In this document: piece after piece, positions 615 to 37,447 of the stretch
How the letters are laid out: each line of letters starts with the position of its first letter
Position numbering within the stretch: the first letter of the stretch is position 1
Virus record (IMG/VR): IMGVR_UViG_3300017978_000250
Coordinates: 1 to 64,000 of that record
Length of the DNA stretch: 64,000 nt
From: a virus
Lineage: Duplodnaviria; Heunggongvirae; Uroviricota; Caudoviricetes
Strand: one strand, 5' to 3'
Notes under the pieces: model-generated
Seen by the model: only the letters and a program-made list of their open reading frames with translations
Database searches by the model: none
What the model was told of the DNA's origin: nothing
Program-made: the position numbers and the translations under genes

Positions 615-1505
615 TTACTTACCCAAGTTGAGCATCATGCCCTGACTACCATTGACAACTGTGTTGGGCATCTTACCGTCCCACTTGTCAATCCATTGTA
701 GTTGAACGTATGCTTGTCCACCATTTGATTGAATAGCTTCTGCTTGAATCTTAATCGCTTTAGCTTCACCTTCAGCTTGTGCGATACGTGACTTAGCTTC
801 AACCTCAATTCGTTGCAAGTCTTGTTCGGCTTTCAACTTACTTTGTGTAGCAACCATCTTTGCGTCAATCGCATCTTGATATGCTTTACCAAATCCAAAG
901 TTGACCAAGCTGATGTTACTCACTGTGATATCGAAGGGTGCGACTTTTGTTTGTAGACGTTCCAGAATCTTACCAGACACTTCTTCACGCTTGATAATCA
1001 ATTCTTCACTTGTATACTGACCAGTCACAGTCTTAAACACTTCGCTGATAGCAGGAGCAAGTACTTTGTCTGCTACGTTCAATCCAAACTCTTTGTAGAT
1101 AGTTGGGACCATGTTAGGAGTCAAACGATAGTTTACAACAATGTCAGTGTGTACTTGTTGCATATCTTTAGTACCTGCGCTTTGATTTTCAAGCTGGGCA
1201 CGTTGCAACTGCACGTTGACATTCTTGACTGAACTGATTGGGTTTACGAGTGTAACACCTTCAGTCAATACGTTGTCTAAGTTAGTTTTACCTAGAGTAA
1301 CTTGCACGCCTACGTTACCAGGTGGAACGATTGTGATTGATTCAAACGCAATGACTGCTACAACTAGCAAGAAGGGCAATGCCACCAACTTACGAAACGG
1401 ATACGTAGTTTCGTATCCTGTATTAGTACGTGTATTAATTGACATGAAATACAAGAAGATTGCAGCACCGAGTGCTACTACAAAAGAGAGACCAATTAAA
1501 AACAT
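615..1505 (-). CDS. SPFH/band-7 (prohibitin/HflC-like) membrane protein
   Basis: N-terminal TM helix then SPFH-like core (NVGVQVTLGKT...VHTDIVVNYRL) and coiled-coil C-terminus; RBS AAGGAAAC before ATG. Confidence 0.75.
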   Translation of the reverse strand: MFLIGLSFVVALGAAIFLYFMSINTRTNTGYETTYPFRKLVALPFLLVVAVIAFESITIVPPGNVGVQVTLGKTNLDNVLTEGVTLVNPISSVKNVNVQLQRAQLENQSAGTKDMQQVHTDIVVNYRLTPNMVPTIYKEFGLNVADKVLAPAISEVFKTVTGQYTSEELIIKREEVSGKILERLQTKVAPFDITVSNISLVNFGFGKAYQDAIDAKMVATQSKLKAEQDLQRIEVEAKSRIAQAEGEAKAIKIQAEAIQSNGGQAYVQLQWIDKWDGKMPNTVVNGSQGMMLNLGK

Positions 1506-1526: not shown

Positions 1527-1550
1527 AAAAAGCCCCCGAGGGGGCGTTAT
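1527..1550 (-). terminator. intrinsic terminator between ATPase and SPFH genes
   Basis: GCCCCCTCGGGGGC hairpin followed by TTTTTAAATTT on minus. Confidence 0.65.
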
Positions 1551-2596
1551 TAAAAAGCGTCCCAGTAACGGGGTTGCTTTTCAACTTTGCGTGTCAGTGT
1601 GACACGGGTGCCTTTATCTTCAAAGATAAAGTGACCGTCTTTCACAGTAACCAATGTGTTGGCTGTGAATGTTTTGTGAACGTAGTCATCGTCTGCGTTC
1701 TCTGGATCAGGGTCGAAACCAACATTGACACCGTCAGCATTCAACGGGTTACCGCGGAATGTATCTTGGTAATCGATTTCTTTGTTGTTGTGAACAACTT
1801 TGATATCGTATGTAGAAGCACCATCGAACTCTGGCTTAGCGTTCAACATCTTCAATGCTTCGACTGGAGATTCATTGTAACGATTCATTTCTTCAACCAA
1901 TGCCTTCAACATGTCGAAGTTGAATTCAGAGAACAAAGTAGAGATAGAAACAATACGTTCAATCTGATCCTTAGCTTCCAAGTTGTCGTTGCAGTATTCA
2001 CGAATGAATGTAGCATCAACACCCTTAAAGTCAATCATGTAGAAGATACGACCTGGGCGGTTACGCATGTGACGATCCACACGCCACTTGTCGTTAGTTG
2101 TCAACATGAACAACTTCTTAGATGGGAAGACACCATCCAACAATGTCAAAATCATTTCTTGCTGTTCAGAATCATACACCTTCTCAAATTCATCAAACAA
2201 GATAGCGCAAGGTTGTTCGATAGATTGAATGAAAGAATTGAACTTGTCACCACACCATGGTGCGTTAATGACGATTGTTGGGATATCTTGCTTTGCCATT
2301 TCAAAGCAAACGTTCTTAGTAAGCAAAGTCTTACCAGAACCCTTTTCGCCTGTCAACATGACGCCGGTTGCGTTGTCACGTGCCAAGAATGTACGGATGA
2401 TTCGGTCAGTGTGCTTTAAGCAATCACCATAAATCTTTGTTGGAATGTTGAAATTGTCAATATGCTCAAGGAAGAATTGACCAGACATTTCATCCTTACC
2501 AACGGTGTAGTTACCACCGGGCAAATGTTCAGTCAAGTCCAATGCTTCTTTACGGGCAATACGGTATGTATTGCCAGTCTTCATAAAGTATGCCAT
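1550..2596 (-). CDS. AAA+/P-loop ATPase
   Basis: Walker A GEKGSGKT, Walker B ILFDEFE; 348 aa. Confidence 0.7.
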   Translation of the reverse strand: MAYFMKTGNTYRIARKEALDLTEHLPGGNYTVGKDEMSGQFFLEHIDNFNIPTKIYGDCLKHTDRIIRTFLARDNATGVMLTGEKGSGKTLLTKNVCFEMAKQDIPTIVINAPWCGDKFNSFIQSIEQPCAILFDEFEKVYDSEQQEMILTLLDGVFPSKKLFMLTTNDKWRVDRHMRNRPGRIFYMIDFKGVDATFIREYCNDNLEAKDQIERIVSISTLFSEFNFDMLKALVEEMNRYNESPVEALKMLNAKPEFDGASTYDIKVVHNNKEIDYQDTFRGNPLNADGVNVGFDPDPENADDDYVHKTFTANTLVTVKDGHFIFEDKGTRVTLTRKVEKQPRYWDAF

Positions 2597-2681
2597 TTAA
2601 TTTCTTTCTCTGTGTGTTTAACGATTTAAGATGTGTAGTATAACAGAGACTAGGTTTTTTGTCTAGTCTCTGTTTACCCAT

Positions 2682-4082
2682 TTACTTGCGAGAGTTTGCT
2701 CGGACTTCGTCAAAAGTGTAAGACTTTGTTAGTACACCGTCTTCGTAGACAGTAACCAATGCGTCAGTCCAACCACCGATGCCTTTGTCTGACCAACCTG
2801 TTGGGGCTGATACACCAGATGCGTATTCGCCACCACTGTTAGTGAACAGTTTGACACGACCGCCTTTACTGCGTTTGCCTGAGTCAGTGATTGGATCCTT
2901 GACTACATCACGCCATTCACCATCGACCTGGACACTTGAGCATTTCATTGCGAAACGTTGTGTATCTCGGTCAACGATTTGCAACAACGCACCGCCCATA
3001 CCGAAAGCAAAGTTGTCAGCACTCCAGCCATTCAAGTCTACCATGATACGCATGATTGCTTGGATGCTTTGAATGTTGATACCATCGCCCCAGATTACTC
3101 GGACGTTGTTCAATACTTTGTAGCCTTTGCTGTTCTTAGTGTGACCGAATCCTGTGTTCAAGATGCCAACTACTTTTGGCAAGACTTCGACAGGATCACC
3201 TGAGTCAGGACGAATCACAACAGTAGCACCCGAATCAATAACTTGTTGCTTCAATTCAGTGCCCCACATTTTAGAGGCTTCGTAGATATCAAAGCTATCG
3301 GATACCACTGCAAGAATTGCACCGGGCTTGCCGTACTGTGTAACCATGTTGCTGTAGGCTTTTGCTTCGTTTTCACGACCCCAGCTTGTTACTGTGCTGT
3401 GCTCCATTGCAGGAATGCTAAAACCGCAAACGTCAGCATCATAATACTCCATAGCGTACAAAATACCAGTAATAGTGTCTGTACCCATAAAGTTGATGAG
3501 GTGTCCCGCACCACCAATCCCAGCGCTTTCAAGAGAACTAACGCCCCGAGCACCGAAATCGTGTAACTTAAAATCAATACCACTAATATCTCCTGACTTG
3601 TTTAAGTACTCGGCAATCACTTTCTTGATTGTGTAACTTTGTGTTGCCACTGTTGTTCCGTACCAGACTGCACGAAGCAATGCTGTTTCAAGCCACGTAG
3701 TAAGCCAGAAACACTTGGGGTCCGTGTTCTCGATTGTTGCCAATACGTTTGATACAGGTACGACTGACCCTTCTGGTACTGCTCGGATACGTACGGGTAA
3801 ACGCCCGCCGAGCTGTTCGACAATATACTCCCAACCGTCCCTGTTGAAAGGTACACCGTGAGCTGTGAGGATCTTATCTGCGACCTCAATGTCTTCTCGG
3901 GTGACTGGAGTAGTGAGATACTCTTTAATAAATGCCTGTAATCCGAACATGACGGTTGCATCATATTTGCCACCGCGGCTTTCAATGTATGAATAGACAC
4001 CTGTAGTTCCTACTGGGTATTGTTTGAACATTGAGACTTTGTAGCTGTCTGTGTTCAGGATGATGTTTTTAGCGAGTTTCAT
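2682..4082 (-). CDS. nadV: nicotinamide phosphoribosyltransferase (NAMPT/NadV)
   Basis: 466 aa with conserved NAMPT family blocks (DSYKV..., GTD..., WGDG...); typical of phage NadV. Confidence 0.85.
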   Translation of the reverse strand: MKLAKNIILNTDSYKVSMFKQYPVGTTGVYSYIESRGGKYDATVMFGLQAFIKEYLTTPVTREDIEVADKILTAHGVPFNRDGWEYIVEQLGGRLPVRIRAVPEGSVVPVSNVLATIENTDPKCFWLTTWLETALLRAVWYGTTVATQSYTIKKVIAEYLNKSGDISGIDFKLHDFGARGVSSLESAGIGGAGHLINFMGTDTITGILYAMEYYDADVCGFSIPAMEHSTVTSWGRENEAKAYSNMVTQYGKPGAILAVVSDSFDIYEASKMWGTELKQQVIDSGATVVIRPDSGDPVEVLPKVVGILNTGFGHTKNSKGYKVLNNVRVIWGDGINIQSIQAIMRIMVDLNGWSADNFAFGMGGALLQIVDRDTQRFAMKCSSVQVDGEWRDVVKDPITDSGKRSKGGRVKLFTNSGGEYASGVSAPTGWSDKGIGGWTDALVTVYEDGVLTKSYTFDEVRANSRK

Positions 4083-4162
4083 AATAAAGTTCCTTTATTT
4101 TCAAATTGCCTAGAGTCTATCTCTAGGACTTGTTATCAGTATAACACAACATTATTATTGTG

Positions 4163-4366
4163 TCAACCTTCTTCGGGTTCCATATCAGTTGGATCGTATA
4201 CATATCCACCTTTGATTCCAAGAATAGGGTCAACAATAAAGTTTGGCACCCATTTGTCTTTCTTGCCAATCAGTGAGTAAACTGGGAGTGACTTACCGTC
4301 TACTACCATTTCACCTACTTGTTTGGTTTCGTATTTGTATTCCCACCAACCCATATCAGCCCCCAA
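4163..4366 (-). CDS. hypothetical protein
   Basis: 67-aa ORF in operon context between macro and nadV genes. Confidence 0.45.
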   Translation of the reverse strand: MGADMGWWEYKYETKQVGEMVVDGKSLPVYSLIGKKDKWVPNFIVDPILGIKGGYVYDPTDMEPEEG

Positions 4367-4865
4367 ATTCTACCAAAGTGACAGAGCCACCACGTTCTTT
4401 AATTACTCTTGCAAAGTTGTCAAGCATTGGGATGATTCGTTCTGGATCGCCCATTGCTAGACCCATACCAATGTAGGGGAATGCCCATCGTTCTTGGGGC
4501 AACCAACCTGCCCACTTATACAACAACAATTCAAAGCCTAGATATTCGAAAACATCTTGACCACGACTAATCGTATATTGTGTATACGCATTAACCAAGA
4601 ACCATGCATCATTCTTACTACGCTCAATAACTGAGTGAGTATAGGTACCTACTTTGTCAAACTTACCTGCTTGTGTTGCATTGTCTGCTTCAACCGCTTG
4701 TGGATAACGACTTGCAATCTCTTTAGCGATGCCGCCGCCCATCATGTTGTAACAGTTACAACCTTGTACTACAACGTCAAACTCACCTGCTTCTGCCATG
4801 TCAAGGATATTACCTCGTGCATGTTTGAGGTGCATAGTTGGAATTGAACCTGGATTGATTGTCAT
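4356..4865 (-). CDS. macro domain protein (ADP-ribose / O-acetyl-ADP-ribose processing)
   Basis: VVVQGCNCYNMMGGGIAKEI motif typical of macro (Appr-1-p) domains. Confidence 0.7.
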   Translation of the reverse strand: MTINPGSIPTMHLKHARGNILDMAEAGEFDVVVQGCNCYNMMGGGIAKEIASRYPQAVEADNATQAGKFDKVGTYTHSVIERSKNDAWFLVNAYTQYTISRGQDVFEYLGFELLLYKWAGWLPQERWAFPYIGMGLAMGDPERIIPMLDNFARVIKERGGSVTLVEFGG

Positions 4866-4866
4866 A

Positions 4867-5886
4867 TTAAGCTCCTAAGAAGTGTTGCAAAATTTCGTAG
4901 TGGTCTTCGAAACATTCTTCCGACTTAACCTCTGCGATTGGTACCCAACGTGCTTTCTCAGCATCGTCACTACCTTTTACTTTGGGCAGTTCGCCATCGG
5001 GCAATTGAATGTAGAATGCGTGTGTAATGATACGACCACGAGGTGAGCGGTCAATAGCATCGAACACTTTACTGCGAACGATACTACCACGCAACACGGG
5101 TGCGGGCACTTTAATCATTGTTTCTTCACGCAACTCACGAATAGCCGCATCTTCTACTGACTTGTCAGTGTTTGCGTTGACATAACCACCGGGCAGTGCC
5201 CACAAACCTTTACCTGGTTCTGCTCTACGCTTAATCATAAGAATGTGACCTGAGCAAATAACCACAGCGTCAGCAGTAGAGAAGATGGGAGGGTACTTCA
5301 AGCTGGCATATTGTTTGTTGTGTTCGATAATGAATTCACGTTCACGGATGATTTGTGCGAATTCCTCAGTCTTACGAAACTCCATTAAGAAGTCATAAGT
5401 AGATGCTGGCACAACATTCTTAATAAAGTTGCTGTTGAAAGTCCAGTTAAAGTACAGGTCACGGATGTTAACTGCACTGAGTGGTTCAATTTCTTCCACA
5501 TCAACGTATTCCCATTGAGGGAACATATCCAAGTAGAAACTTGATTCGTCTTTTTTGTGACCGATGATGGCAGTTTTAGTGCCGAGGATGCGATAGCGTG
5601 ACACGATACTTTGAACACGTACAGCCCACGCTTGGTCGTTGTACACGGTGTCAATATTTCCCTCAATGTGAATATTCATTGACAGACCGCTGGTTGCAGC
5701 CTTAATCATTTTAGCACGTTCGGCACTAGTGAACGGGTTTTTGTAAGTGCGGGGTTGAGCTGCCGAACCTGTGATAATCACGAGGTTGTCGGTCAATGCT
5801 GTGGCTCGCTTGATAATCTCTAAGTGAGCATTGTGAAAAGGTTGAAAGCGTCCGATAAGGACTAGTGTACCATATTGTTTTGACAT
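4867..5886 (-). CDS. natV: bifunctional NMN adenylyltransferase / Nudix ADP-ribose pyrophosphatase (NatV-like)
   Basis: N-terminal cytidylyltransferase GRFQPFHNAH motif; C-terminal Nudix box GGx5Ex7REUxEExGU-like (GGYVNANTDKSVEDAAIRELREET). Confidence 0.85.
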   Translation of the reverse strand: MSKQYGTLVLIGRFQPFHNAHLEIIKRATALTDNLVIITGSAAQPRTYKNPFTSAERAKMIKAATSGLSMNIHIEGNIDTVYNDQAWAVRVQSIVSRYRILGTKTAIIGHKKDESSFYLDMFPQWEYVDVEEIEPLSAVNIRDLYFNWTFNSNFIKNVVPASTYDFLMEFRKTEEFAQIIREREFIIEHNKQYASLKYPPIFSTADAVVICSGHILMIKRRAEPGKGLWALPGGYVNANTDKSVEDAAIRELREETMIKVPAPVLRGSIVRSKVFDAIDRSPRGRIITHAFYIQLPDGELPKVKGSDDAEKARWVPIAEVKSEECFEDHYEILQHFLGA

Positions 5887-5948
5887 TGAAAAATCCTTTC
5901 AATAAATGTCTGCTCGGCGTCTATCGCTCTGCTTCTTTATTTATACTT

Positions 5949-5977
5949 AGTATAACACCTTTAGTATTATTTGTCAA
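5949..5977 (-). promoter_or_regulatory. sigma70-type promoter (TTGACA-17-TATACT)
   Basis: Minus TTGACAAATAATACTAAAGGTGTTATACT upstream of natV. Confidence 0.55.
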
Positions 5978-6209
5978 CCTTTTTTGCCCATTTGCTGTCT
6001 GGAAAGGGGAAAAATTCTGTCTCAATTACAAAGAATTTGTGTCTACCTTTTGGGTTCTCTTGGTTGTACTCTTTCTGAGTAAAGTCTCGGTAAAAATCAG
6101 CATCCTCTTTTCGCTGGAATCCACGACTTTCAACTTTCCATGTTACTTTTTTGGAACAATGGCTAAGAGTATTTGTACGCATTACTAGAAACATATCAGT
6201 CCTTACCAA
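5967..6209 (-). CDS. hypothetical protein
   Basis: 80-aa ORF upstream of promoter P1. Confidence 0.4.
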   Translation of the reverse strand: MVRTDMFLVMRTNTLSHCSKKVTWKVESRGFQRKEDADFYRDFTQKEYNQENPKGRHKFFVIETEFFPFPDSKWAKKVDK

Positions 6210-6532
6210 CTAATCTGAACGCCGTAGTTTTGAATTGTTGGGCCGTTGCCGTTGTCGTCTGCTAAACCCCGTGGAACATATTTGTCACCGTCTAACCTAA
6301 TCTCAACACGATAACCCAATGTTTTGAGTTTGTCTGCTACTGCCTGTTGCAAGGGAGTGATAGTGTGATGTAGGTACTCAAACTGTTTCACGCTACCCAT
6401 ATCGATAAACACTTGACGCTTGCCACCTTCGGCAGCTTTTTTCACTATCCTCTCGACTGTATTCTTCAAGTAATCATTGACCTCTGCGCCACTTTGGTCA
6501 TACAGTTCTTTGGCTTCTTTTGCAGTAATCAT
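6203..6532 (-). CDS. hypothetical protein
   Basis: 109 aa; N-terminus (ITAKEAKEL) paralogous to ORF 6921-7463. Confidence 0.55.
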   Translation of the reverse strand: MITAKEAKELYDQSGAEVNDYLKNTVERIVKKAAEGGKRQVFIDMGSVKQFEYLHHTITPLQQAVADKLKTLGYRVEIRLDGDKYVPRGLADDNGNGPTIQNYGVQISW

Positions 6533-8051: not shown

Positions 8052-9020
8052 TTATGGTTTGCTTGGGCTTTGGGGCCAGCTTGCGTTAGTCTGTGTACTC
8101 GCTTGAGGGACGTAATACTCATAACGCTTGGTAACGTCATTAGTACCTTTGTCGAAACCTTCTGCATAGTCCTTACCAGAACCATTGTAGCCGTTTTCTT
8201 CCCAACCATCAGTGTAGCCACGATAGAATTCAGTCGAACCACGCTTAACTACTGGTGTCGGTGCCACGTAAGTGTTTGAGTTTGCATTAGCTTGCACTGG
8301 TTGAGTAAACTCAACTGCATCCTCAGGGTTTCTACCAACTTCACCAATCACTTCATATCGACATGTACGACCTTTTGTGTTGTTGTAGTCGTTTGGAATA
8401 GACACAACATCACGTGGGTTAATCTTAACGATAACAACACGTTCACCACCAAAGTGCTTCAAGTAGCCTTCAGAACAGAAGTGCAAACCATGTGAACAAG
8501 TGTTGTTTTGGTTATCATCAACCTTGTTACGAGCCATAGTCAAAACTTGACCTGGTGAGTTGTCCATTGTACCTGAGTACACGTCCTTGTAGTCACCACG
8601 AACTTTCTTGTAAGCCAAGAAATGACCATCTGGGGTGATTGGCAAGTTGTTCTTTTCCAAGAAGCCATACAATTCATCTACGGAACGCTTAGATGGGTTA
8701 TCCATCAAGTTCTCCATGAACTTAATGAGAGGTTCGATAGTGAAACCCTCAGTCAGCATTTGCACCATGCGAGTAGCAAGAGTGCCGTTGAACACTTCGC
8801 CGTCCCAGTACATTGTTTCGCCCTTGATGGACACTCGACCTTGACCGTAGTCTAGTACGACTTTCTTTGGCTCAATCACATTTTGCACAGTTTCCCAGTC
8901 ACCTGCTTTGATAGCATCAACAACCTTTTGATAGGTAATGTGTGTCTTAGAAATTGTGTGTGGCTTGTTGCCGATAACTACGGTAACATTGTTACCTTGA
9001 ATAATGAATGGATAACTCAT
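8052..9020 (-). CDS. rIIB: rIIB protein
   Basis: C-terminal block DNSPG...TCSHGLHFCSEGYLKHFG...VKINPRDVVSIPNDYN...RTCRYEV matches T4 rIIB family; immediately downstream of rIIA. Confidence 0.8.
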   Translation of the reverse strand: MSYPFIIQGNNVTVVIGNKPHTISKTHITYQKVVDAIKAGDWETVQNVIEPKKVVLDYGQGRVSIKGETMYWDGEVFNGTLATRMVQMLTEGFTIEPLIKFMENLMDNPSKRSVDELYGFLEKNNLPITPDGHFLAYKKVRGDYKDVYSGTMDNSPGQVLTMARNKVDDNQNNTCSHGLHFCSEGYLKHFGGERVVIVKINPRDVVSIPNDYNNTKGRTCRYEVIGEVGRNPEDAVEFTQPVQANANSNTYVAPTPVVKRGSTEFYRGYTDGWEENGYNGSGKDYAEGFDKGTNDVTKRYEYYVPQASTQTNASWPQSPSKP

Positions 9021-9021
9021 T

Positions 9022-11163
9022 TTAGATTCCTTTTACTTGGTCAATCAAATTAACATACTCTGCTACAGCCGATTTTTCAACGCCGTAACTCAGAGACTTT
9101 AACAGAGGATAACGAGTAAACACATCGTAAACATCCTTTGTATACTTATCAATCAATGCTTGTGGGCTAGTAGAAGTTTTCACATCATACCGAGAACACA
9201 ACCATTGAGTTGCATTTTGCACAGTCGAATCGATAGCCTTCACATCTTTGAATGTGTTCACTAATTTAGCGAACGGGCTATTTGCATCAATCTTGTCACT
9301 ATTATACTTGATAAAATCATTAATGTCAAGGTTTTGTTTTACCAAACCCATGATATTTGCCTTATCCATTTTAGCAAGTTTTTCAACAATGAATGTATCC
9401 AACTCAACCCAATTCTTTTGCAGTTTGACCCATTCAATGTCAGTCTTACGAACACCATGAATTGTACCAGTGTAAACACCAGACTTTTCTAAGTAACGAC
9501 CCAATGTCTTCACATCGGAGCACTTGTTCAAAGCAGTGAAGCCTGACAATGGGATGTAGTAGTAAGTTGTTTTGTTGTCAAACGTATCAGCTTTACCAGC
9601 ATCACGCCAGACCAACTCACCGCTGCCACCCCAACCACGACTGCGACCTTCTTCCAAACGCATGATAGTAACGTTCTTACCCATTGTTGAGGTACGTTCT
9701 TTTTCAAGCAACGAACTAGCCTGCATGAAATAACTTTCAGGAGGGTTTGCCAACAACTTTTTGAAACCTACCAAGTCAATTGGCTTAGTCTTGTCGTATG
9801 CTTCAATGACAAACACGTGGACACTATTAAGACCTTGATCCTTGATGAAAGAACTTTCTTTCACGTGATGCTTGGCTCTCTCAACAGCACCAACTTTAGT
9901 GTCATTGATTACGAAACGTGCTTCCTCAGCAATAGAAATATCCCATTCATTGTAATGAGCCTGTGCAGTAGCATCATAACGATGTGCAACTTTCATGTTA
10001 GTACATGCGGTGTAATTACGACTCTTGCTAAAGCCACGAATGATAATGTTGTGGTTAGTTTTCAGGTCACTTTCTGGGATAGCAAAACGATGTAAACGTG
10101 CCCAAGATTGGCTAGTGTTAACATACTCAAACTTGGTGTCGGTGCAATACTTAGTAACAGCAGACTGCCACAAATATGTGCTTGACTTCTTAGTAAGGAA
10201 CAAAGCCTTTTCCCAAGTGTTTGCGATACCGTCAGCTTCCTTAGCAACCACACCAGCGAGTGCCGCGTTTACTTCTTCCAACTTACGCTTGATTGATTCA
10301 ATTGTTTGTGGAATGTACGACAAGCCTTCACGTGACGCTTGAAAGTCAAGTTCACCGATACCAAATTCCATCATTAAGCCGCAATGCAACAAGTGACGCA
10401 ATTCACCGATAGTGTTATCAGCAGAAGGAATCTCGATTGGATATGCAATGTTACCCATGATAGCATAGCTACCACGACTATCTTTCATACTGTGAACACC
10501 GGGGATGATGTTTTCAGTTTCGTATTCAACCTTAGAAACTTCAAACTTGTCAACACCAGAGACAACTGGTTGTTGTTTGAACCACTTGTAAACTGAACGA
10601 GCCTCTTGACGGAACTTGTCAAAGTCATAACGGTCGTTAACTGAGAATTTAACCTCGACGCCATTTGGTTCGTCGGTGTTTTCAGTCATCATTTGGGCGA
10701 TACTAGGTACGCCAGATTCGTTGATAAACGCGGTGTAGACACCTTTGACACCATTCTGTACAGCAGTGACCGTGAAGTTATCGGTGTAAGAGAAAGGTGA
10801 CTTTGATCCAAGACCCAAAGCGCCGATGAATTCGTTGGACGCTGTTTTAGTACTTTCAAAGTAAGTGGTGTAGATGTTTGTGACCTGGTCAGCTGAAAGA
10901 CCTGTTCCATAGTCACGAATTGAGAACCAAGGTTCGAGTGAGTTGGGGAGGTGTACATCAAACGGCGTAGTGCTCTTGCCGGCAGCCACGTGCGAGTCCA
11001 CTGCGTTACATGATAGTTCACGAATGATAGCACGGACTTTGTTTGCATACAAACCTGATGAAAGAATTGAGAAAGCCTTCGCACTATTGCGAATACGAAA
11101 TTCACCAATTTGACCGACGTTTGAAACAACAGCTTGGTCTTGGGGAGCAGAATTTAGAATCAT
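9022..11163 (-). CDS. rIIA: rIIA protein (GHKL/HATPase-like N-terminal domain)
   Basis: 713 aa; N-terminal NAVDSH...IRDYGTGL HATPase-like motifs; gene order rIIA then rIIB as in T4. Confidence 0.8.
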   Translation of the reverse strand: MILNSAPQDQAVVSNVGQIGEFRIRNSAKAFSILSSGLYANKVRAIIRELSCNAVDSHVAAGKSTTPFDVHLPNSLEPWFSIRDYGTGLSADQVTNIYTTYFESTKTASNEFIGALGLGSKSPFSYTDNFTVTAVQNGVKGVYTAFINESGVPSIAQMMTENTDEPNGVEVKFSVNDRYDFDKFRQEARSVYKWFKQQPVVSGVDKFEVSKVEYETENIIPGVHSMKDSRGSYAIMGNIAYPIEIPSADNTIGELRHLLHCGLMMEFGIGELDFQASREGLSYIPQTIESIKRKLEEVNAALAGVVAKEADGIANTWEKALFLTKKSSTYLWQSAVTKYCTDTKFEYVNTSQSWARLHRFAIPESDLKTNHNIIIRGFSKSRNYTACTNMKVAHRYDATAQAHYNEWDISIAEEARFVINDTKVGAVERAKHHVKESSFIKDQGLNSVHVFVIEAYDKTKPIDLVGFKKLLANPPESYFMQASSLLEKERTSTMGKNVTIMRLEEGRSRGWGGSGELVWRDAGKADTFDNKTTYYYIPLSGFTALNKCSDVKTLGRYLEKSGVYTGTIHGVRKTDIEWVKLQKNWVELDTFIVEKLAKMDKANIMGLVKQNLDINDFIKYNSDKIDANSPFAKLVNTFKDVKAIDSTVQNATQWLCSRYDVKTSTSPQALIDKYTKDVYDVFTRYPLLKSLSYGVEKSAVAEYVNLIDQVKGI

Positions 11164-12236: not shown

Positions 12237-12545
12237 TTATTTCATTAAGAGTTCTTTTAGCTTTTTAGCTGTGATAACTTCGTGGACACCCTTCACATCT
12301 TTTATAACCATCTCCAGTTCAACTACTTCCCATTCAGCTACACGGTTGCGATGATTTTTACTATTCCGATTGTAACCACTATCAGAATTCATAACACCAG
12401 TTATGAACGTGCGTAGTTGCCCCAGTGTTTGAAAGATGCGACCGGTCTTGTCGTAGCTTTGGTAGTAGGGAGTGCCCTTAACAAATAGTTCAGGGTCGTT
12501 TTTGCTTCTAATCTTGTAAAAAATCATAATTTTAATGTTGCCCAC
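12237..12545 (-). CDS. hypothetical protein
   Basis: 102-aa ORF. Confidence 0.5.
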   Translation of the reverse strand: MGNIKIMIFYKIRSKNDPELFVKGTPYYQSYDKTGRIFQTLGQLRTFITGVMNSDSGYNRNSKNHRNRVAEWEVVELEMVIKDVKGVHEVITAKKLKELLMK

Positions 12546-12826
12546 ATTGCAGTCTTCTCCAAGTCTTGTTGGAACTCTGGATAGACTTCATCCAAGTGAT
12601 GCTTGTCTACTTCGGTATAACCATTTCTTAATTTCTTCCTGAAAGAATCAGCGACCTCTCGAAAATTACCCTCAAGTATTTTGGTTTGAAGTTTTGCTCC
12701 TCGGCGCCCCCAGAACGTGAGGTACTTGCCTTTAGACCAAAAAGATTCAGATTCTTGTAAACATATAACACCCCAAACTTTATCAGAGGTACCTTCTTTG
12801 CACCAACCAATATGTGTGAAATTCAT
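12524..12826 (-). CDS. WGR-domain protein
   Basis: KVWGVI...YLTFWGRRGAKLQTK resembles the WGR domain signature (W..G...WGRiG). Confidence 0.5.
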   Translation of the reverse strand: MNFTHIGWCKEGTSDKVWGVICLQESESFWSKGKYLTFWGRRGAKLQTKILEGNFREVADSFRKKLRNGYTEVDKHHLDEVYPEFQQDLEKTAMWATLKL

Positions 12827-19212: not shown

Positions 19213-20019
19213 TTATGCGTTGTAGATTTTCTTCAAACTCTGTTCAACTATACGCTGGCGTTCTTGTTTTGTCTTAGCACCTAACACAGTTATATTATAC
19301 AGCTTATCGTTAGACATTACAAGCATTGTGATACAAAAACCGGCTGCTCTGGTAAAACCTGTTTTGATTGTAACGATACCTTCACGACCAAAGAAGTTAC
19401 TCGTTGGATGTGCTGTAATCTTACGCTCACCTTCACGTGTAACCTTGTGTCTGTTCTTATATTTCTTAACAGTCTTTACACCTTCAGCGTTTGCATTGAC
19501 TTCTTTCTGAGTCTTTGCGGCAGATTGTACTTGCTTGAACTCGCTAACTGCTTTAGTCAACGCCACAACGTCACTGATACTTGAGTAGTTCATGGGGCTT
19601 AGACCAGTTGGCTCGACAAAGCCAGTATGAAACATCTTTAGTTCGTCAGCATGTTTGTTCATTTGGTAGACAAAGTAGTTCATGCCACCTGGATAGTTCT
19701 CACCTAAAGTAATCGCGGCAATGTTGTCGCTGGACACTAGAGCAAGGTCAATTAGTTCTCTACGTGTTAAACGCATCCCTTTTTGTAACTTGGTATTGGG
19801 GGTACGTTGACTACGTACAGTGAGCTTTTCGTCCAAGTCTTGGTCTGCTTTTAATACAGTATAGATAGTCATTAGTTTACTGATACTAGCAATGCTTTTC
19901 TCAGTGTCAGCTAGGGAACCGGTAATGACTTGATTATTAGTTACGTTGTAGACTACTGTTTCAGTCTTAGCAAAAGCCAAGAAAGGTAGTAGCGTCAACA
20001 ATAGAATAATTTTACGCAT
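19213..20019 (-). CDS. secreted D-alanyl-D-alanine carboxypeptidase (peptidase S11, PBP5-like)
   Basis: Signal peptide; SxxK (SISKL), SxN (SSDN) and KTG (KTGFT) motifs. Confidence 0.75.
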   Translation of the reverse strand: MRKIILLLTLLPFLAFAKTETVVYNVTNNQVITGSLADTEKSIASISKLMTIYTVLKADQDLDEKLTVRSQRTPNTKLQKGMRLTRRELIDLALVSSDNIAAITLGENYPGGMNYFVYQMNKHADELKMFHTGFVEPTGLSPMNYSSISDVVALTKAVSEFKQVQSAAKTQKEVNANAEGVKTVKKYKNRHKVTREGERKITAHPTSNFFGREGIVTIKTGFTRAAGFCITMLVMSNDKLYNITVLGAKTKQERQRIVEQSLKKIYNA

Positions 20020-24380: not shown

Positions 24381-24457
24381 TGGTGCCCTTGACAGGACTC
24401 GAACCTGCAGAACCTAGTCTCTCAAACTAGTGCCTATACCAATTCGGCTACAAGGGC
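24381..24457 (-). tRNA. tRNA, apparent anticodon GAG (Leu-type) but class I (short variable arm)
   Basis: Cloverleaf by eye: acceptor GCCCTTG/CAAGGGC, T-loop TTCGAGT, anticodon loop TTGAGAG, encoded CCA; directly downstream of promoter P12. Confidence 0.55.
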
Positions 24458-24475
24458 TTTTTCTTTCAATGATGT

Positions 24476-24504
24476 ATTATACAATGATTTGGGATTTATG
24501 TCAA
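24476..24504 (-). promoter_or_regulatory. sigma70 consensus-type promoter (TTGACA-17-TATAAT)
   Basis: Minus strand reads TTGACATAAATCCCAAATCATTGTATAAT. Confidence 0.7.
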
Positions 24505-25109
24505 GCGCAAAGGAAGCACCCTAGTTGCGCTGATAAAGACTTTTTATAGAATAGTAATATAAAGTATTAAAAATAAAGAACAAAAGACCTCAAGGGTAAT
24601 AATAATGCGAGATTTTCGTCTAGGGTGCTTATGTAAGTATACTGTCTTTTTCAAACACAGAGCCTGTCTTATCGGGCAGGGTGCGACATTATACTTACAT
24701 AAGTGTTCTATCACCTCTCACCACAAGAGTCATAGAACCGAGATGCCTACTCTGTCTACGTATTTATTTTATTCTGGCAGTTGTTAGCGTTCAACTTCCC
24801 TAGATTGTTTCCGTACTCTGAAATTGAGTCGTGTGGTCGAGTCCTAGTGTACCAGATAAGTGATAAGCCAACTTATCATTGGCCATTTGTTATCGTACAA
24901 ATGTAGACGGGGTTTGAGTTTGATATGTCACTAAATGCTCAATCCTGAGAAAGATTTTACGGCATGCCAGCATTTTTTATTGTGAACAGAAGGGGTCTCG
25001 GTTACTGTTTTTAAACTTCTTCATATCAAATTAGGGGTGAATGATTAGGCTGACTCCCAAGCGTCCTCGGGCTTTATTTAAAGTGACGCACACTCACCTA
25101 ATCAATCGT

Positions 25110-26528
25110 TTAAGCCAAGTCGTAACGAGGCTTCATTACGGTCTTCAACATGATTGCTTCTGGGGTGAAGTCATCCATGTTACCGCCCATGATACCACCA
25201 GCAACAGCAGGGCTGAAACCAGAGACTAGAGCAGTACCCTTCTTGTCAAAAGACACAGGGGTGTTACCGTAAGCGGCGTTCAAGTTCCAGAACACAACAT
25301 TAGGAACAGTGTAACCTGCATCCTTAAACTTGCGTTCAATCATTTCGATTGCTGATTCGTCACGGTCTACACCTTGGTCGAATTGCATATCTGAAAAGAT
25401 TACCAATGTTTCAGGCATTTCTGCTTGTGGAACATTGTTCTTAACTGCAACATCCAGGATCAATTCAAACGCCTTGTGCAAGTTAGTGTTAGCTACCTCG
25501 CCTGTGTTCATTTGGTCAATCTTTTGGTTGATGTTACCTGTTAGGTTCACCAACTTAGGACGGTTGCTGAAAGTCAAGAATGTATCCTTGAACTTACCAG
25601 TGTTCTTGTCAGCAAAGTACAAGCCCAAAGAGATTGCAACTTCCAAGCAGGTCAAGCCTGACTTAGAGTTGTAACCACCTGCTGGACAAGTCATTGAACC
25701 TGACGAGTCTACCATTGGCAACACGTTAGCGTCACCGATGTAGTTTGGCAATGCGTTCCATTGCGCTTCCACAACATCCAACTCAGTCTTAGACATAGAG
25801 TTGTAACGACCGATGCGACCCTTAAGGACATCGTACGGGAAGATTGCGGATGCGTTGATTTTAACGCCTGCTTCACCCTTCACCAACTTCGAAACGTATT
25901 CAGCGTATGTTTGACCATGACGACCGAATGCCTTCTTGTATCGTGCGTGAGCAACTGAAGGGACATGTGAGAAGTTGATAGAGTCCCAGTTGTTCGAACA
26001 CATTTGTGTTTCGACAACATTTGTCATACCAACTAGTGTCTTACGATATTGCTTTGGAGTCATACCGAAGAACTCGCGGATTTCACGTGCAAGGGTGCCC
26101 TTACGTGGAGTCCACTTCGCAGCCAAGCCATTGCCGGAACGCAAAGCGTCACCGAGAATGTTGAATGCTTCCCACTTTAGTTTAGGGTCGGTGAAAACGA
26201 ACAAGTCGTCAAATCGACCCACTTCTGGAATCTTCTTCATCAAACGCAAAGCGTCTTCAGGAGAAGTCTTTTCCAAGTGACGCAAAACTGAACGGAACAA
26301 TTCACGTTCACCTGAGCCACCACGAACGTCACGTGCCCATTGAGCAATACGCAACGCCAAATCGGAGTTTTCTACGAAGGCAGCAGTGAAAGCAGGGACA
26401 ATGTCCTTACCTCGGGATGCGCCAATGTTATAGAACAAATCAACGCAAGCGTTTGCGCTGGATGCTCGTGCCTTCATGCCATTGGCAGTGCGGGCTTCTT
26501 GGTTCTTAATCGCTTCTACGAACTTCAT
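25110..26528 (-). CDS. Ro60-like protein (helical TROVE-like N-terminal region plus vWA domain with MIDAS DxSxS)
   Basis: 472 aa; MIDAS motif MVDSSGSM; architecture helical domain plus vWA as in Ro60/Rsr orthologs; Y-RNA-like element in its 5' leader. Confidence 0.55.
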   Translation of the reverse strand: MKFVEAIKNQEARTANGMKARASSANACVDLFYNIGASRGKDIVPAFTAAFVENSDLALRIAQWARDVRGGSGERELFRSVLRHLEKTSPEDALRLMKKIPEVGRFDDLFVFTDPKLKWEAFNILGDALRSGNGLAAKWTPRKGTLAREIREFFGMTPKQYRKTLVGMTNVVETQMCSNNWDSINFSHVPSVAHARYKKAFGRHGQTYAEYVSKLVKGEAGVKINASAIFPYDVLKGRIGRYNSMSKTELDVVEAQWNALPNYIGDANVLPMVDSSGSMTCPAGGYNSKSGLTCLEVAISLGLYFADKNTGKFKDTFLTFSNRPKLVNLTGNINQKIDQMNTGEVANTNLHKAFELILDVAVKNNVPQAEMPETLVIFSDMQFDQGVDRDESAIEMIERKFKDAGYTVPNVVFWNLNAAYGNTPVSFDKKGTALVSGFSPAVAGGIMGGNMDDFTPEAIMLKTVMKPRYDLA

Positions 26529-26552
26529 AGTTTTTCCTTTCTGTGTGTATAT

Positions 26553-26618
26553 GAAGCAGGATACATTTTTTCTTTTATACCAAAAAGTTAAAAGTTGCTG
26601 TTAGTATCCTAAAATTTC
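26553..26618 (-). ncRNA. Y-RNA-like stem element (copy iv) in 5' leader of Ro60-like gene
   Basis: 5' UUUUAGGAUACUAACAGCAAC ... 3' GUAUCCUG; AGGAUAC pairs with GUAUCCU; lies between the Ro promoter and the ATG. Confidence 0.5.
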
Positions 26619-26636
26619 TTACTGTCTAAAGATGTT

Positions 26637-26665
26637 ATTATAACATCCTTTTGAAATACTGTCTG
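26637..26665 (-). promoter_or_regulatory. sigma70-like promoter for Ro60-like gene (CAGACA-17-TATAAT)
   Basis: Minus strand CAGACA then 17-nt spacer then TATAAT. Confidence 0.5.
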
Positions 26666-27116
26666 TACTTTTGGGTACATGACTGGATGGACGAGACGTA
26701 ATTTATTTTTAGGGTCACCCGTCGATATCTCATGACCTTAGCTAACACGTTCACTGTTAGACTGCATATCCCATGTTCTACGGGAGACTATCTTATATTC
26801 TACAAGCACTAGTTAGCCTACCTTGCGGATACTAACATGCGTTAATATTGTTACTTGCTGAAACCATCCAAATATAACAGGTTAGTTGTTGACTGCTTTT
26901 ATTTTACTCAGGCCATCACTCTGAGCTTGTTAGTCTATTTCAATAGCGACCTTCAACGATTCACAGATTTTAACCTGCTTCACTCCAGCCAACTACCATA
27001 GGGTCTAACGATTCATAGTTAATGAATATTGCTGCGCCTAACCTTATGAAACTCGATACAAGTATTATAGCACAAATTCTTTGTTCTACAATACATTTTG
27101 GGTAACTAAATACTGA

Positions 27117-27713
27117 ATGACTTTATACGAAGAACTAGGCTTACAGCCAGACTGCACAATGGACCAGATTAAACTAAAGTATAGAATACTTGCTGGTGTC
27201 CATCATCCAGATAAGGGTGGCGATGAAGAACGATTCAAACGTATAAAGTTTGCTTATGAAGTTCTCAGTGATCCTGCACGCCGTAGACAATACGATGAAG
27301 ACAAGACTACCGATGAACCAACAGATAAACACAAAGAGGCTATTTCAAATCTAGCCGAAGTGTTCTTTGCAATCATTCCCAACTTTGATTGTCTCGGTGG
27401 CAACTTAATAGAAGCCATGAAGAACGAAATCAACAAAGTTAAAGCCATTGCTTTAAAAAACTTAGTTGAGAATGATATGTATATTTCTAATTTGGAAGTT
27501 GTCAAAAGTAAATTGAAGATGAAGAATCCTGAAAAGGAAAACATCATACTAGCATTTATTGAAACTCAATTAGAAACACGGTTAAGAGATAAAATTATCT
27601 ATGAAAAGAGAATTTCTATATCTGACTTGATGTTGTCAATACTTGATGACTATCAGTATGGATTCCTTGAGTTATTCAATGAAGTTCCAACTGACATTGT
27701 TGGCGGAAACTGA
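27117..27713 (+). CDS. J-domain (DnaJ-like) protein
   Basis: YEELGL...YRILAGVHHPDKGG...FKRIKFAYEVLSD: J domain with HPD motif; 3' end overlaps tRNA-Ser on the opposite strand. Confidence 0.7.
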   Translation: MTLYEELGLQPDCTMDQIKLKYRILAGVHHPDKGGDEERFKRIKFAYEVLSDPARRRQYDEDKTTDEPTDKHKEAISNLAEVFFAIIPNFDCLGGNLIEAMKNEINKVKAIALKNLVENDMYISNLEVVKSKLKMKNPEKENIILAFIETQLETRLRDKIIYEKRISISDLMLSILDDYQYGFLELFNEVPTDIVGGN

Positions 27714-27790
27714 GAGATTCGAACTCTCGGAACACGTTAATGTTCGACGGTTTTCAAGACCGTTGCGTTAAACCACTCTGCCAAGTTTCC
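27701..27790 (-). tRNA. tRNA-Ser(UGA)
   Basis: Acceptor GGAAACU/AGUUUCC, anticodon loop CTTGAAA, long variable arm, TTCGAAT T-loop, encoded CCA. Confidence 0.75.
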
Positions 27791-27795
27791 ATTAT

Positions 27796-27871
27796 TGGTG
27801 GAGGTGACAGGGATCGAACCCGCTACCTATTGCTTGCAAAGCAACCGCTCTCCCAGATGAGCTACACCCCC
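27796..27871 (-). tRNA. tRNA-Ala(UGC)
   Basis: Anticodon loop TTTGCAA; G3:U70 pair in acceptor stem; encoded CCA. Confidence 0.7.
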
Positions 27872-27880
27872 CATTATTTC

Positions 27881-36312: not shown

Positions 36313-36380
36313 AACAGGATCGTTTTTGTCGCTAGACATCCAAAGTTAGCTTTTTGATTGCTGAACCGATCCTAAAACTG
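36313..36380 (-). ncRNA. Y-RNA-like stem element (copy v) with compensatory stem change
   Basis: 5' GUUUUAGGAUCGGUUCAGCAA ... 3' CGAUCCUGUUAU: AGGAUCG pairs with CGAUCCU where other copies have AGGAUAC/GUAUCCU. Confidence 0.5.
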
Positions 36381-36382
36381 AG

Positions 36383-36449
36383 GCCCCTGTGAGAGGAATT
36401 GAACCTCTACCACCGCGCGCCGTGTATGCTCCCATTACACTACACAGGG
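36383..36449 (-). ncRNA. 67-nt tRNA-like RNA lacking an anticodon arm
   Basis: Perfect acceptor CCCTGTG/CACAGGG, D arm GTGT-AATGGGAGCAT-ACAC, T arm AGAGG-TTCAATT-CCTCT, only 13 nt where anticodon and variable arms should be. Confidence 0.5.
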
Positions 36450-36456
36450 ATTGAAT

Positions 36457-36576
36457 TGGTGCCGCCGGAAGGATTCGAACCTCCATTACTTCCTTGAAAT
36501 GGAATTTTATGTTGCTGTAAGTACTCTTGTCAGAGTAGACCTTTTTAAGCGTCCTAGCCAATTAGACGACAGCGGC
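36457..36576 (-). ncRNA. 120-nt tRNA-like RNA: anticodon arm replaced by about 65-nt insertion carrying UACUUACAGCAAC motif
   Basis: Acceptor GCCGCTG/CGGCGGC plus CCA, D arm GTC-TAATTGGCTAG-GAC, T arm GGAGG-TTCGAAT-CCTTC; inserted hairpin TACTCT-GACA-AGAGTA followed by TACTTACAGCAAC. Confidence 0.5.
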
Positions 36577-36582
36577 ATTGTT

Positions 36583-36657
36583 TGGAGGGTCGTACAAGAT
36601 TCGAACTTGTGACTGCTGGTTTCGAAGACCAGAACTCTTCCACTGAGTTAACGACCC
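36583..36657 (-). tRNA. tRNA-Arg(UCG)
   Basis: Anticodon stem CTGGT/ACCAG, loop CTTCGAA, T loop TTCGAAT, CCA. Confidence 0.7.
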
Positions 36658-36820
36658 ATTGAATAGGTTTTTGAGAGACCAACTATCTTTCTCAAGGACT
36701 CATTGGCTTGTCTCGATTGAGAGAGTTTAACGACCTTGTGTAGCTACTGGCGTGTCAGTCACAAGAATAGGGACCTAGCGCACAAGGGACTCAATCTCAT
36801 CGTCTATCTCAAAACTTGAA

Positions 36821-36901
36821 TGTGTGTTGCAGGATTCGAACCTACATCCGGAGGTTGTTACGCCTCATGTAATGACGCCCTAACATTTATACTAAACACA
36901 C
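36821..36901 (-). tRNA. tRNA (81 nt, no encoded CCA), anticodon unresolved
   Basis: Acceptor GTGTGTT/AACACAC, T arm GTAGG-TTCGAAT-CCTGC; internal region does not give a clean cloverleaf by eye. Confidence 0.4.
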
Positions 36902-36907
36902 AAAACT

Positions 36908-36982
36908 TGGTGCTCCATGACAGACTTGAACTGCCTTCTCCGGACTACAAAACCGGTGTTCTACCACGTGAACTAATAGAGC
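36908..36982 (-). tRNA. tRNA-Thr(UGU) (Gln not excluded)
   Basis: D stem GTTC/GAAC, anticodon stem CCGGT/TCCGG with loop TTTGTAG, T loop TTCAAGT, CCA. Confidence 0.6.
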
Positions 36983-37113
36983 ATAATATAACAGGATACA
37001 TCTAGTGACCGAGTATGAATCGGTTGCTCTACCTTAGAGCGTATTTGGCAAACGCCAAATGTTGGAATCGAACCAACTGACTTTGTAAGTCGTTGCTGTA
37101 AGTATCCTAAAAC
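36983..37113 (-). ncRNA. Y-RNA-like RNA (copy i) with circularly permuted tRNA-like domain
   Basis: 5' GUUUUAGGAUACUUACAGCAAC; then T arm GTTGG-TTCGATT-CCAAC; acceptor stem closed by loop ATTTGGC-GTTT-GCCAAAT; D arm GCTC/GAGC; anticodon-like arm ACCGA-TTCATAC-TCGGT; 3' GUAUCCUGUUAUA pairs with 5' AGGAUAC; flanked by a tRNA 3' end and a tRNA 5' end. Confidence 0.55.
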
Positions 37114-37188
37114 TGGCGATGCATGGGAGAATCGAACTCCCGTCTCCGGATAGACAATCCGGGATAATGACCATTATATGAATGCACC
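37114..37188 (-). tRNA. tRNA, anticodon GUC-like (Asp?)
   Basis: Anticodon stem CCGGA/TCCGG with loop TTGTCTA, T arm GGGAG-TTCGATT-CTCCC, CCA; AT-rich D arm. Confidence 0.5.
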
Positions 37189-37195
37189 TTAAACT

Positions 37196-37273
37196 TGGCT
37201 CCGTGACTAGGGATCGAACCTAGCTTATTTCTGATTAACAGTCAGACGCCTACACCTTGCTTGCTCTCACGGA
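37196..37273 (-). tRNA. tRNA-Asn(GUU)-like
   Basis: Anticodon stem TCTGA/TCAGA, loop CTGTTAA, T arm CTAGG-TTCGATC-CCTAG, CCA. Confidence 0.55.
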
Positions 37274-37280
37274 ATAAAAT

Positions 37281-37355
37281 TGGTAGCCACGGACAATTTT
37301 GAAATGTCGACCTATCGCTTATCAAGCGAGTGCTCTTCCTCTGAGCTACGCGGCT
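37281..37355 (-). tRNA. tRNA-Ile(GAU)
   Basis: D stem GCTC/GAGC, loop TTGATAA, CCA. Confidence 0.65.
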
Positions 37356-37372
37356 ATATGTTTGGTGCCTCC

Positions 37373-37447
37373 ACCTGGGTTCGAACCAGGGACTCCCACC
37401 TTATCAAGATGATACTCTACCACTGAGTTATAGAGGCATTAATTGTT
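37373..37447 (-). tRNA. tRNA-Ile(GAU)-like (second copy)
   Basis: Loop TTGATAA, T arm CCTGG-TTCGAAC-CCAGG, CCA. Confidence 0.6.

Follow-up and report, generated by a model that had tools for sequence, protein, structure and literature searches.

A 64,000-nucleotide stretch of DNA, positions 1 to 64,000 of IMG/VR virus record IMGVR_UViG_3300017978_000250 and referred to below as the window, was analyzed with respect to a cluster of three genes for the metabolism of NAD+ (nicotinamide adenine dinucleotide). The record belongs to an uncultivated T4-like phage. In the direction of reading, the cluster comprises the following genes:

4867–5886, minus strand: NatV, 339 amino acids (aa), a NadM-type nicotinamide mononucleotide (NMN) adenylyltransferase (NMNAT, approximately residues 1–180) fused to an ADP-ribose-pyrophosphatase-type Nudix domain (approximately residues 200–339), recognized by Pfam and PDB matches.
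4356–4865, minus strand: a macrodomain protein of the Poa1p / Adpp / T4 Tk.4 (AdfM) family, 169 aa, recognized by structure prediction and homology.
2682–4082, minus strand: nicotinamide phosphoribosyltransferase (Nampt/NadV), the first enzyme of the NARP2 pathway, 466 aa, recognized by Pfam, PHROG, NCBIfam and PDB matches.

The three are real, conserved genes, and a chance pattern is excluded. In a preliminary description of this DNA, these open reading frames (ORFs) had been listed together with a fourth, at 12524–12826, for a WGR-domain protein; all four were found with exactly these limits, and all lie on the minus strand, as does almost every long ORF from position 1 to approximately 24 kb. 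The rIIA and rIIB genes, a T4-like trait, are located at 8052–11163. Comparison of positions 2400–6300 with 50,697 phage records by megablast gave no DNA match, while IMG/VR contained many contigs related to the window, several of them of 200–354 kb. The source belongs to a large clade of uncultivated T4-like phages, probably of jumbo size.

The Nampt ORF matched the Pfam families NAPRTase (E-value = 6.8e-55) and NAMPT_N (E-value = 2.4e-29), the NCBIfam model NF006629 (628.5 bits, cut-off 405) and the PHROG family phrog_448 (E-value = 2e-160), and it matched over the full length bacterial NAMPT (PDB 7yqo, E-value = 1.7e-172) and mammalian NAMPT (E-value of about 1e-127). Its substrate preference, as predicted from sequence, would be that of the Nampt clade, which uses phosphoribosyl pyrophosphate (PRPP), and not that of the Namat clade. 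In the NatV ORF, the Pfam families CTP_transf_like (E-value = 3.7e-15) and NUDIX (E-value = 4.7e-21) were detected, and the PDB matches included the bifunctional enzymes of Synechocystis (2qjo, E-value = 9.8e-87, residues 4–337) and Francisella (2qjt, E-value = 4e-63); the best NCBIfam model gave 390 bits, slightly below its cut-off of 397. The families expected for the two ORFs in the preliminary description (PF04095 for Nampt, PF01467 and PF00293 for NatV) were thus all recovered. The nucleotidyltransferase motif of NatV is HNAH instead of HxGH; since 81 of the 88 distinct clade sequences keep HNAH, as does Synechococcus phage B23, it was regarded as a trait of the lineage and not as a sign of decay. 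The core of the Nudix box, REUxEE, is intact. The homologues from Synechocystis and Francisella, like NatV of phage KVP40, are known to cleave ADP-ribose (ADPR) through the Nudix domain, yielding AMP and ribose-5-phosphate. The distance between the NatV and Nampt genes is 785 bp.

Judged by these families, the Nampt and NMNAT-Nudix enzymes very probably have the activities of NARP2, the known two-step route from nicotinamide to NAD+. With nicotinamide, PRPP and ATP as starting materials, the KVP40 pair restores NAD+ and overcomes the Thoeris and DSR2 defenses; it raises NAD+ even in defense-free cells, and its cost is a drain on PRPP (bioRxiv 10.1101/2024.02.11.579819). The defense aRES is also cancelled by NARP2 (bioRxiv 10.64898/2026.01.28.702374). 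The two-step NAD+ salvage attributed to these genes in the preliminary description is upheld insofar as both enzymes match the families of the published NARP2, for which the cancelling of Thoeris, DSR2 and aRES was reported. The KVP40 system (Lee et al. 2017, cited in Osterman et al. 2024, bioRxiv 10.1101/2024.02.11.579819) has the same two enzyme families and the same domain architecture, and NatV of the KVP40-like phage VH7D has 36% identity with the window NatV (E-value = 1e-60). However, the adenylyltransferase motif of KVP40 NARP2 is HNGH (HNAH in the window), and in VH7D the NatV and Nampt genes are not adjacent, neither Nampt nor a macro gene being present within 9 kb, whereas the window holds a compact cluster with the macro gene in the middle. 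Among the ORFs scanned in the 64 kb available, which included some of those past 39 kb, there was no Pfam match to a PRPP-synthetase-like protein (Adps), and Adps, Prs, NadR, PnuC, NADAR, Sir2 and ADP-ribosyltransferases, all of which were looked for, were not found.

The ORF lying between the two NARP2 genes had only sub-threshold matches in Pfam and NCBIfam, including 13.9 bits against the Macro family PF01661 (cut-off 22, E-value = 0.055), the family expected for it in the preliminary description. An AlphaFold2 model built on an alignment of homologues had a mean pLDDT (predicted local distance difference test) of 82. When this model was searched with Foldseek, 135 PDB chains were retrieved at E-value ≤ 0.001, and among the 50 listed nearly all were macrodomains, with Poa1p, TARG1 and DarG as the top fold matches (probability 1.00, E-value of about 1e-6, template modeling (TM) score 0.6–0.7). 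In phmmer searches of the PDB sequences, the protein found yeast Poa1p at an E-value of 1.8e-4, and a profile of 48 homologues found it at 2.4e-5. The protein falls in phrog_335, annotated as "phosphatase" (E-value = 2.4e-30), and relatives were detected by tblastn in 2,255 phage records. The product is soundly predicted to be a macrodomain protein closest to Poa1p, TARG1 and DarG. Of the intervening macro-domain gene described earlier, the position between the NARP2 genes and the fold, the latter by model and homology, were retained, but the Pfam threshold was missed. Yeast Poa1p (PDB 6lfq–6lfu), a non-viral cellular enzyme of a tRNA-splicing by-product, is the best solved match by both sequence and fold, and the loop xCNCxxxxGGGIA is present in both proteins; however, identity over the fold alignment is only about 18%, and His23, Ser30 and Phe152 of Poa1p, which are altered in deposited mutants, correspond to Gln34, Met41 and Ala137 of the window protein.

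Phage proteins of the same family have been characterized in two settings. Adpp, a Poa1p-like macro gene, is present in 15% of NARP1 operons (Osterman et al. 2026, bioRxiv 10.64898/2026.01.28.702374). According to the same preprint, purified Adpp of Vibrio phage Gary converts ADP-ribose-1''-phosphate (ADPR-1''-phosphate), the product of the RES-domain defense aRES, to ADPR, and this conversion enables NARP1 against aRES. In the HIDEN-SEQ study (bioRxiv 10.1101/2025.11.20.689424), T4 tk.4 was required for resistance to DarTG2 and was renamed adfM, its knockout sensitizing T4, and the T4 NADAR protein AdfN was an anti-DarTG1 factor. The two roles offered for the macro gene in the preliminary description, removal of ADP-ribose adducts and supply of ADP-ribose-derived intermediates, match these reported functions of AdfM (anti-DarTG2) and Adpp (ADPR-1''-phosphate to ADPR), respectively. 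The sequences compared were taken from Table S1 of bioRxiv 10.64898/2026.01.28.702374 for Adpp and from the T4 record for tk.4. In BLASTP, the window protein had 28% identity with Gary Adpp (E-value = 2e-10) and 37% with the NARP1-associated homologue of Acinetobacter phage phiAbaA1 (E-value = 9e-21); identity was 33% (67 bits) with the protein in the Tk.4 position of Klebsiella phage KMI9 and 27% over 149 residues (54.7 bits, E-value = 1e-11) with T4 Tk.4. The KMI9 protein (KMI9_208) itself scored 105 bits against phiAbaA1 Adpp and 88 bits against T4 Tk.4, and bit scores do not divide the family into an Adpp-type and a Tk.4-type group.

The loop xCNCxxxMGxGIA, the strand end NxYxQ and the loop IGxGLA are common to the window protein, Adpp and Tk.4 and are partly present in Poa1p. 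In the window protein, the first loop carries GGG at residues 43–45, conserved as GxG in the clade. In 85 distinct macro sequences of the clade, taken from any genomic context, C36, N37, C38 and the GxG loop were invariant, as were N92, Y94, T95, Q96, G133 and G135. This invariance across contexts indicates that the protein is under purifying selection. The conserved Asn37 and the GxG loop would be compatible with dephosphorylation of ADPR-1''-phosphate. The position of Poa1p His23, altered in PDB 6lfs, is occupied by His in every Adpp protein compared and in Tk.4, and by Gln34 in the window; within the clade, 69 distinct sequences carry Gln and 16 carry His. Neither this residue nor the isoelectric point could be used as a marker of genomic context, as both Gln and His occurred in both contexts and the isoelectric points did not differ. 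A further candidate marker was the catalytic lysine that follows the central strand, K80 in DarG and K84 in TARG1. In the profile alignment with Mycobacterium tuberculosis DarG, its position (the Lys of "PTKK") corresponds to Gln96 of the window protein, invariant in the clade. The lysine was rejected as a discriminator between glycohydrolase and phosphatase, because T4 Tk.4 (AdfM) also has Gln there, and the position does not separate the candidate activities.

The macro gene is tightly joined to NatV. Its ATG follows the NatV stop codon by 1 nt, and an AGGAG Shine–Dalgarno sequence lies inside the final NatV codons, 7 nt before this ATG. This spacing and the location of AGGAG indicate that the two genes are co-transcribed and translationally coupled.

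To describe the arrangement in relatives, 155 IMG/VR loci (designated L with a number) were fetched, the window proteins were mapped onto each of them by local tblastn, and the arrangements were counted. One set of 80 loci was seeded with the NMNAT-Nudix protein alone, that is, with no selection for the macro gene, and another set of 80 with the macro profile. Both NARP2 genes were present in 71 of the NatV-seeded loci, and in 52 of these 71 (73%) the macro gene was located between them; in three more it was elsewhere in the locus. Among the 80 macro-seeded loci, the macro gene was between the NARP2 genes in 60. With few exceptions it immediately preceded Nampt, at a median distance of 94 bp; the gap between NatV and the macro gene in the NatV-seeded loci ranged from a 2-nt overlap to 2.2 kb. 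The order NatV–macro–Nampt was kept at NatV identities of 44–48% (L144, L149 and L152–L155) and also in loci whose rIIA/rIIB genes flank the cluster on its other side. In cultured Straboviridae, the macro gene was found 3.3–3.6 kb from NatV in KMI9, where it is beside tk, and in avDM12-TAAL; no macro gene was found within 6–9 kb of NatV in RB16, Aes508 and the KVP40-like VH7D.

The interval between NatV and Nampt also accommodates other genes. In Synechococcus phage B23, the closest cultured relative by these proteins, gp47 (annotated as hypothetical; L159, 7036–7566) lies between NatV and Nampt and is a NADAR protein (PF08719, 164.8 bits). The segment gp46–gp49 of B23 thus has an ADP-ribose-processing domain in the same slot as the window; however, NADAR has a fold unrelated to that of the macro protein, and the macro homologue of B23 is 24 kb away. 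The neighborhood of NADAR with NadM/NadV in phages was noted earlier by Iyer et al. 2022 (PMC9503650). The interval of certain IMG/VR relatives holds Nuc_deoxyri_tr2 (PF15891, 124 bits; 12 loci, e.g., L032, 8390–8923), an R2K ATP-grasp protein (five loci), a radical SAM enzyme (seven loci) or a 133-aa ORF of SLOG-like appearance with no Pfam match (three loci); further example loci for interval genes are L109 (6102–7004), L079 (8282–9283) and L087 (7510–7911). In the searchable literature, a macro gene inside NARP2 was not found described, the search being limited and its outcome no proof of absence. NARP2, the macro family, its presence in NARP1 operons and NADAR beside NadM/NadV are known; as far as this search reached, the NatV–macro–Nampt operon is a new arrangement.

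The region may be read as an early-expressed counter-defense module. Nampt, by virtue of its strong homology, is expected to convert nicotinamide and PRPP to NMN, which the NMNAT half of NatV would adenylate to NAD+, restoring the NAD+ destroyed by Sir2, TIR, SEFIR and RES enzymes. The macro enzyme would turn blocked ADP-ribose species into free ADP-ribose, the likeliest substrate being ADPR-1''-phosphate from RES-type NAD+ phosphorylases. The Nudix domain would then split the freed ADP-ribose into AMP and ribose-5-phosphate, from which the host PRPP synthetase (Prs) could produce PRPP, the co-substrate of Nampt. Such a module would salvage both halves of NAD+ and ease the PRPP drain of NARP2. 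An Adpp-like role of the macro gene, coupled to the Nudix domain, is proposed with modest confidence, its chance being put a little below even. It is favored because the gene is coupled to NatV and retained between the NARP2 genes, because NARP1-AP provides a precedent and because NARP2 is known to be costly in PRPP; NADAR, another ADP-ribose-releasing enzyme, in the same slot of B23 was counted as a further precedent.

NARP1-AP of Vibrio phage Gary (Adps–Adpp–Namat) likewise has a Poa1p-like macro gene inside a phage NAD+ reconstitution operon. However, its partners there are Adps and Namat, whereas in the window they are the NARP2 enzymes, with no Adps–Namat operon around the macro gene, and the His shared by NARP1-AP Adpp and Poa1p is replaced by Gln in the window. 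Since NARP2 does not use ADPR and defeats aRES with no macro gene, the benefit of the gene must differ from that in NARP1-AP and might consist in recycling through the Nudix domain, in detoxification or in something else.

Several observations weigh against an Adpp-like role. As NARP2 lacking a macro gene already cancels aRES (bioRxiv 10.64898/2026.01.28.702374), an Adpp-like step is not required. Gln34 of the window protein replaces a His found in Poa1p, in Tk.4 and in every Adpp compared, and by bit score the window protein is no nearer to Adpp than to the Tk.4-type proteins. No PRPP synthetase gene was present among the scanned window ORFs. The association of the macro gene with NARP2 is not obligatory: 16 of the 71 NatV-seeded NARP2 loci lacked the macro gene, NatV and Nampt being directly adjacent in 11 of these 16, and 11 of the 80 macro-seeded loci had no NARP2 gene within approximately 7 kb. 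Moreover, since the related loci belong to one phage clade, the shared order may be partly inherited and not selected.

A wider formulation, which is advanced only tentatively, is that NatV, the macro gene and Nampt form a closed-loop NARP2 with an ADP-ribose-releasing enzyme and that the interval is a slot for varied ADP-ribose-processing enzymes. In the loop, the macro and Nudix activities would return the ADP-ribose half to PRPP, Nampt and NMNAT would reuse the nicotinamide half, and the source of ADP-ribose would be ADPR-1''-phosphate or ADP-ribose taken off DNA. The slot would receive a macro, NADAR, Nuc_deoxyri_tr2 or SLOG-like protein, each matched to the NAD+ product made by the defenses of the respective hosts.

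The explanation that competes best, possible but on balance doubtful, is that the macro protein acts against DarT in the manner of AdfM and would strip ADP-ribose from DarT2-modified thymidine in phage DNA independently of NARP2; its position would then reflect the clustering of early counter-defense genes and not a shared pathway. T4 Tk.4, whose knockout sensitizes T4 to DarTG2, is a homologue from the same family, encoded in a T4-like early region and having, like the window protein, Gln at the DarG lysine position; the window phage is T4-like, with rIIA/rIIB present, and the best fold matches include DarG macrodomains. Relatives with the macro gene and no NARP2 genes nearby exist, and the NADAR protein in the B23 slot belongs to the AdfN family; as T4 AdfN is an anti-DarTG1 factor, this protein agrees with the AdfM-like explanation too. 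The Gln96 of the window in place of the DarG catalytic lysine might be held against a DarG-like activity, but the same residue in Tk.4 makes it non-discriminating. However, T4 has no NARP2, and its tk.4 lies beside tk and vs, whereas the window macro gene lies between the NARP2 genes and, unlike its counterparts in T4 and KMI9, is not beside tk, no tk neighbor being found in the 64 kb. The tight coupling to NatV and the 73% retention between the NARP2 genes are left unexplained by an AdfM-like function, and AdfM itself is assigned by its knockout phenotype. It should be noted that the Adpp-like and AdfM-like roles are not exclusive, because ADP-ribose is released in both.

It is unlikely that the macro protein instead destroys or trims some other soluble ADP-ribose derivative, to degrade signals or to detoxify alongside NARP2, with O-acetyl-ADP-ribose of sirtuins, ADP-ribose cyclic phosphate and Thoeris-like ADP-ribose-based immune signals as candidate substrates. 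The substrates of macrodomains include many ADP-ribose compounds with 1'' or 2'' linkages, the phage versions having been proposed mainly for soluble derivatives (Iyer et al., PMC9503650), and other nucleotide-processing genes, such as Nuc_deoxyri_tr2, also gather in the NatV–Nampt interval of relatives. Many of the macro homologues are labeled "O-acetyl-ADP-ribose deacetylase" by JGI, but this name is an automatic annotation; no homologue with an activity on such derivatives was found, and of the nearest characterized relatives, Poa1p and Adpp are phosphatases and the other is an anti-DarT factor.

The view current before 2024, that Nampt and NatV are auxiliary metabolic genes raising NAD+ for phage nucleotide and DNA metabolism, with the macro gene as an unrelated neighbor, is very improbable: KVP40 NARP2 does raise NAD+ with no defense system present (bioRxiv 10.1101/2024.02.11.579819), and the window phage has many further genes for metabolism and translation, 44 tRNA genes among them, but in published tests the pair overcame Thoeris, DSR2 and aRES, and the repeated occupation of the slot by ADP-ribose-processing domains (macro, NADAR in B23) points to NAD+ breakdown products and not to plain biosynthesis.

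NAD+ depletion is among the commonest bacterial anti-phage strategies, and NARP1, NARP2, NARP3 and NARP1-AP have all been described since 2024. If the macro protein works with NARP2, a PRPP-draining pathway would gain a built-in recycling or detoxifying branch, and the same macro family would have been recruited independently to NARP1 and to NARP2. As two preprints assign two jobs to this one phage family, ADPR-1''-phosphate phosphatase and anti-DarT2 factor, the member described here, placed within the NAD+ operon of a T4-like phage, is well suited to testing whether one family serves both functions. The analysis yields a concrete three-gene construct together with many natural variants, some carrying the macro gene and others lacking it.

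The following sites and genes accompany the cluster:

5949–5977, minus strand: a sigma-70-type early-promoter-like site, TTGACA-17-TATACT with TG before the −10 element, an 11/12 match to the consensus, approximately 60 nt upstream of the NatV start.
4138–4166, minus strand: a second promoter-like site, TTGACA-17-TATACT with TG, an 11/12 match with a short hairpin after it, located approximately 55 nt before the Nampt start.
4163–4354, minus strand: an ORF of 63 aa directly after the macro gene.
1550–2596, minus strand: an AAA+ ATPase (phrog_2376; Pfam AAA, E-value = 6e-11; phrog_2376, E-value = 3e-95).

The AAA+ gene has a promoter-like site of its own at 2637–2665 (10/12 match). The total number of promoter-like sites in the region was no higher than in shuffled sequences, and the sites are suggestive only because of their placement upstream of genes. 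The 63-aa ORF had no notable match in Pfam, PHROG or NCBIfam and no detectable homology to known families; it was present in few related contigs and is not a conserved part of the module. In most relatives, Nampt is directly followed by the AAA+ gene, and in some contigs lacking NARP2 (L098, L104 and L135) the AAA+ gene adjoins the macro gene. An SPFH/Band 7 protein (615–1505, minus strand; Pfam E-value = 1e-28; phrog_200, "lipoprotein") is also encoded in the early region. It was considered whether the cluster corresponds to the plastic T4 nrdC–tk region, with NrdC.10 represented by the AAA+ protein (AAA348) and the NatV-adjacent lipoprotein of RB16 and Aes508 by the SPFH protein; tblastn gave no match at an E-value of 1e-3, and a common regional origin is therefore unproven.

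The remaining gene of the preliminary description lies farther upstream:

12524–12826, minus strand: a WGR-like protein of 100 aa with an invariant FWGRRG motif (weak Pfam and fold matches).

Against Pfam WGR (PF05406), this ORF scored 13.4 bits and missed the cut-off of 22; sub-threshold WGR matches were found in 34 of 40 members of its family (best E-value = 1.9e-4). The model had a pLDDT of 89.5, and 13 of the top 14 Foldseek matches were WGR domains of PARP1/2/3 or PARP2 chains containing one, although these matches are weak (E-value 0.07–0.6, TM-score 0.4–0.48). The family comprises about 590 small proteins, widespread in related phage contigs, and its homologues have no recorded Pfam domain. 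A match of the family profile to WD40 repeat proteins in the PDB was judged spurious, since it consisted of many weak repeats of a short motif. The product is plausibly WGR-like and was not counted in the module. WGR domains are known to bind nucleic acids as modules of PARP proteins and are not known to bind NAD or ADP-ribose. The gene is 6.6 kb from the module, beyond rIIA/rIIB, and its position varies in relatives; the ADP-ribose/NAD theme suggested for it earlier is accordingly not supported.

A D-alanyl-D-alanine carboxypeptidase-like protein is likewise encoded in the early region (19213–20019, minus strand; Peptidase_S11, E-value = 1.6e-31). Farther along, 44 tRNA genes were detected with ARAGORN at 24381–38883, all on the minus strand; this unusually large phage array covers nearly all amino acids, several of them represented two or three times, and the ORFs lying among the tRNA genes are all short. 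A tRNA array is located after Nampt in B23, and that of the window phage is approximately 20 kb from Nampt. At the edge of the array, a 472-aa protein (25110–26528, minus strand) contains DUF7788 and DUF2828 and matches phrog_850, "RNA-binding protein" (E-value = 9e-143). From 39669 to 63979, the G+C content is approximately 37%, down from approximately 41–42%. At least nine ORFs above the Pfam Radical_SAM threshold, a notable density for a phage, are located at 40966–59365 in divergent operons; two of them have SPASM domains, two have B12-binding domains and one has an HMPTM zinc ribbon.

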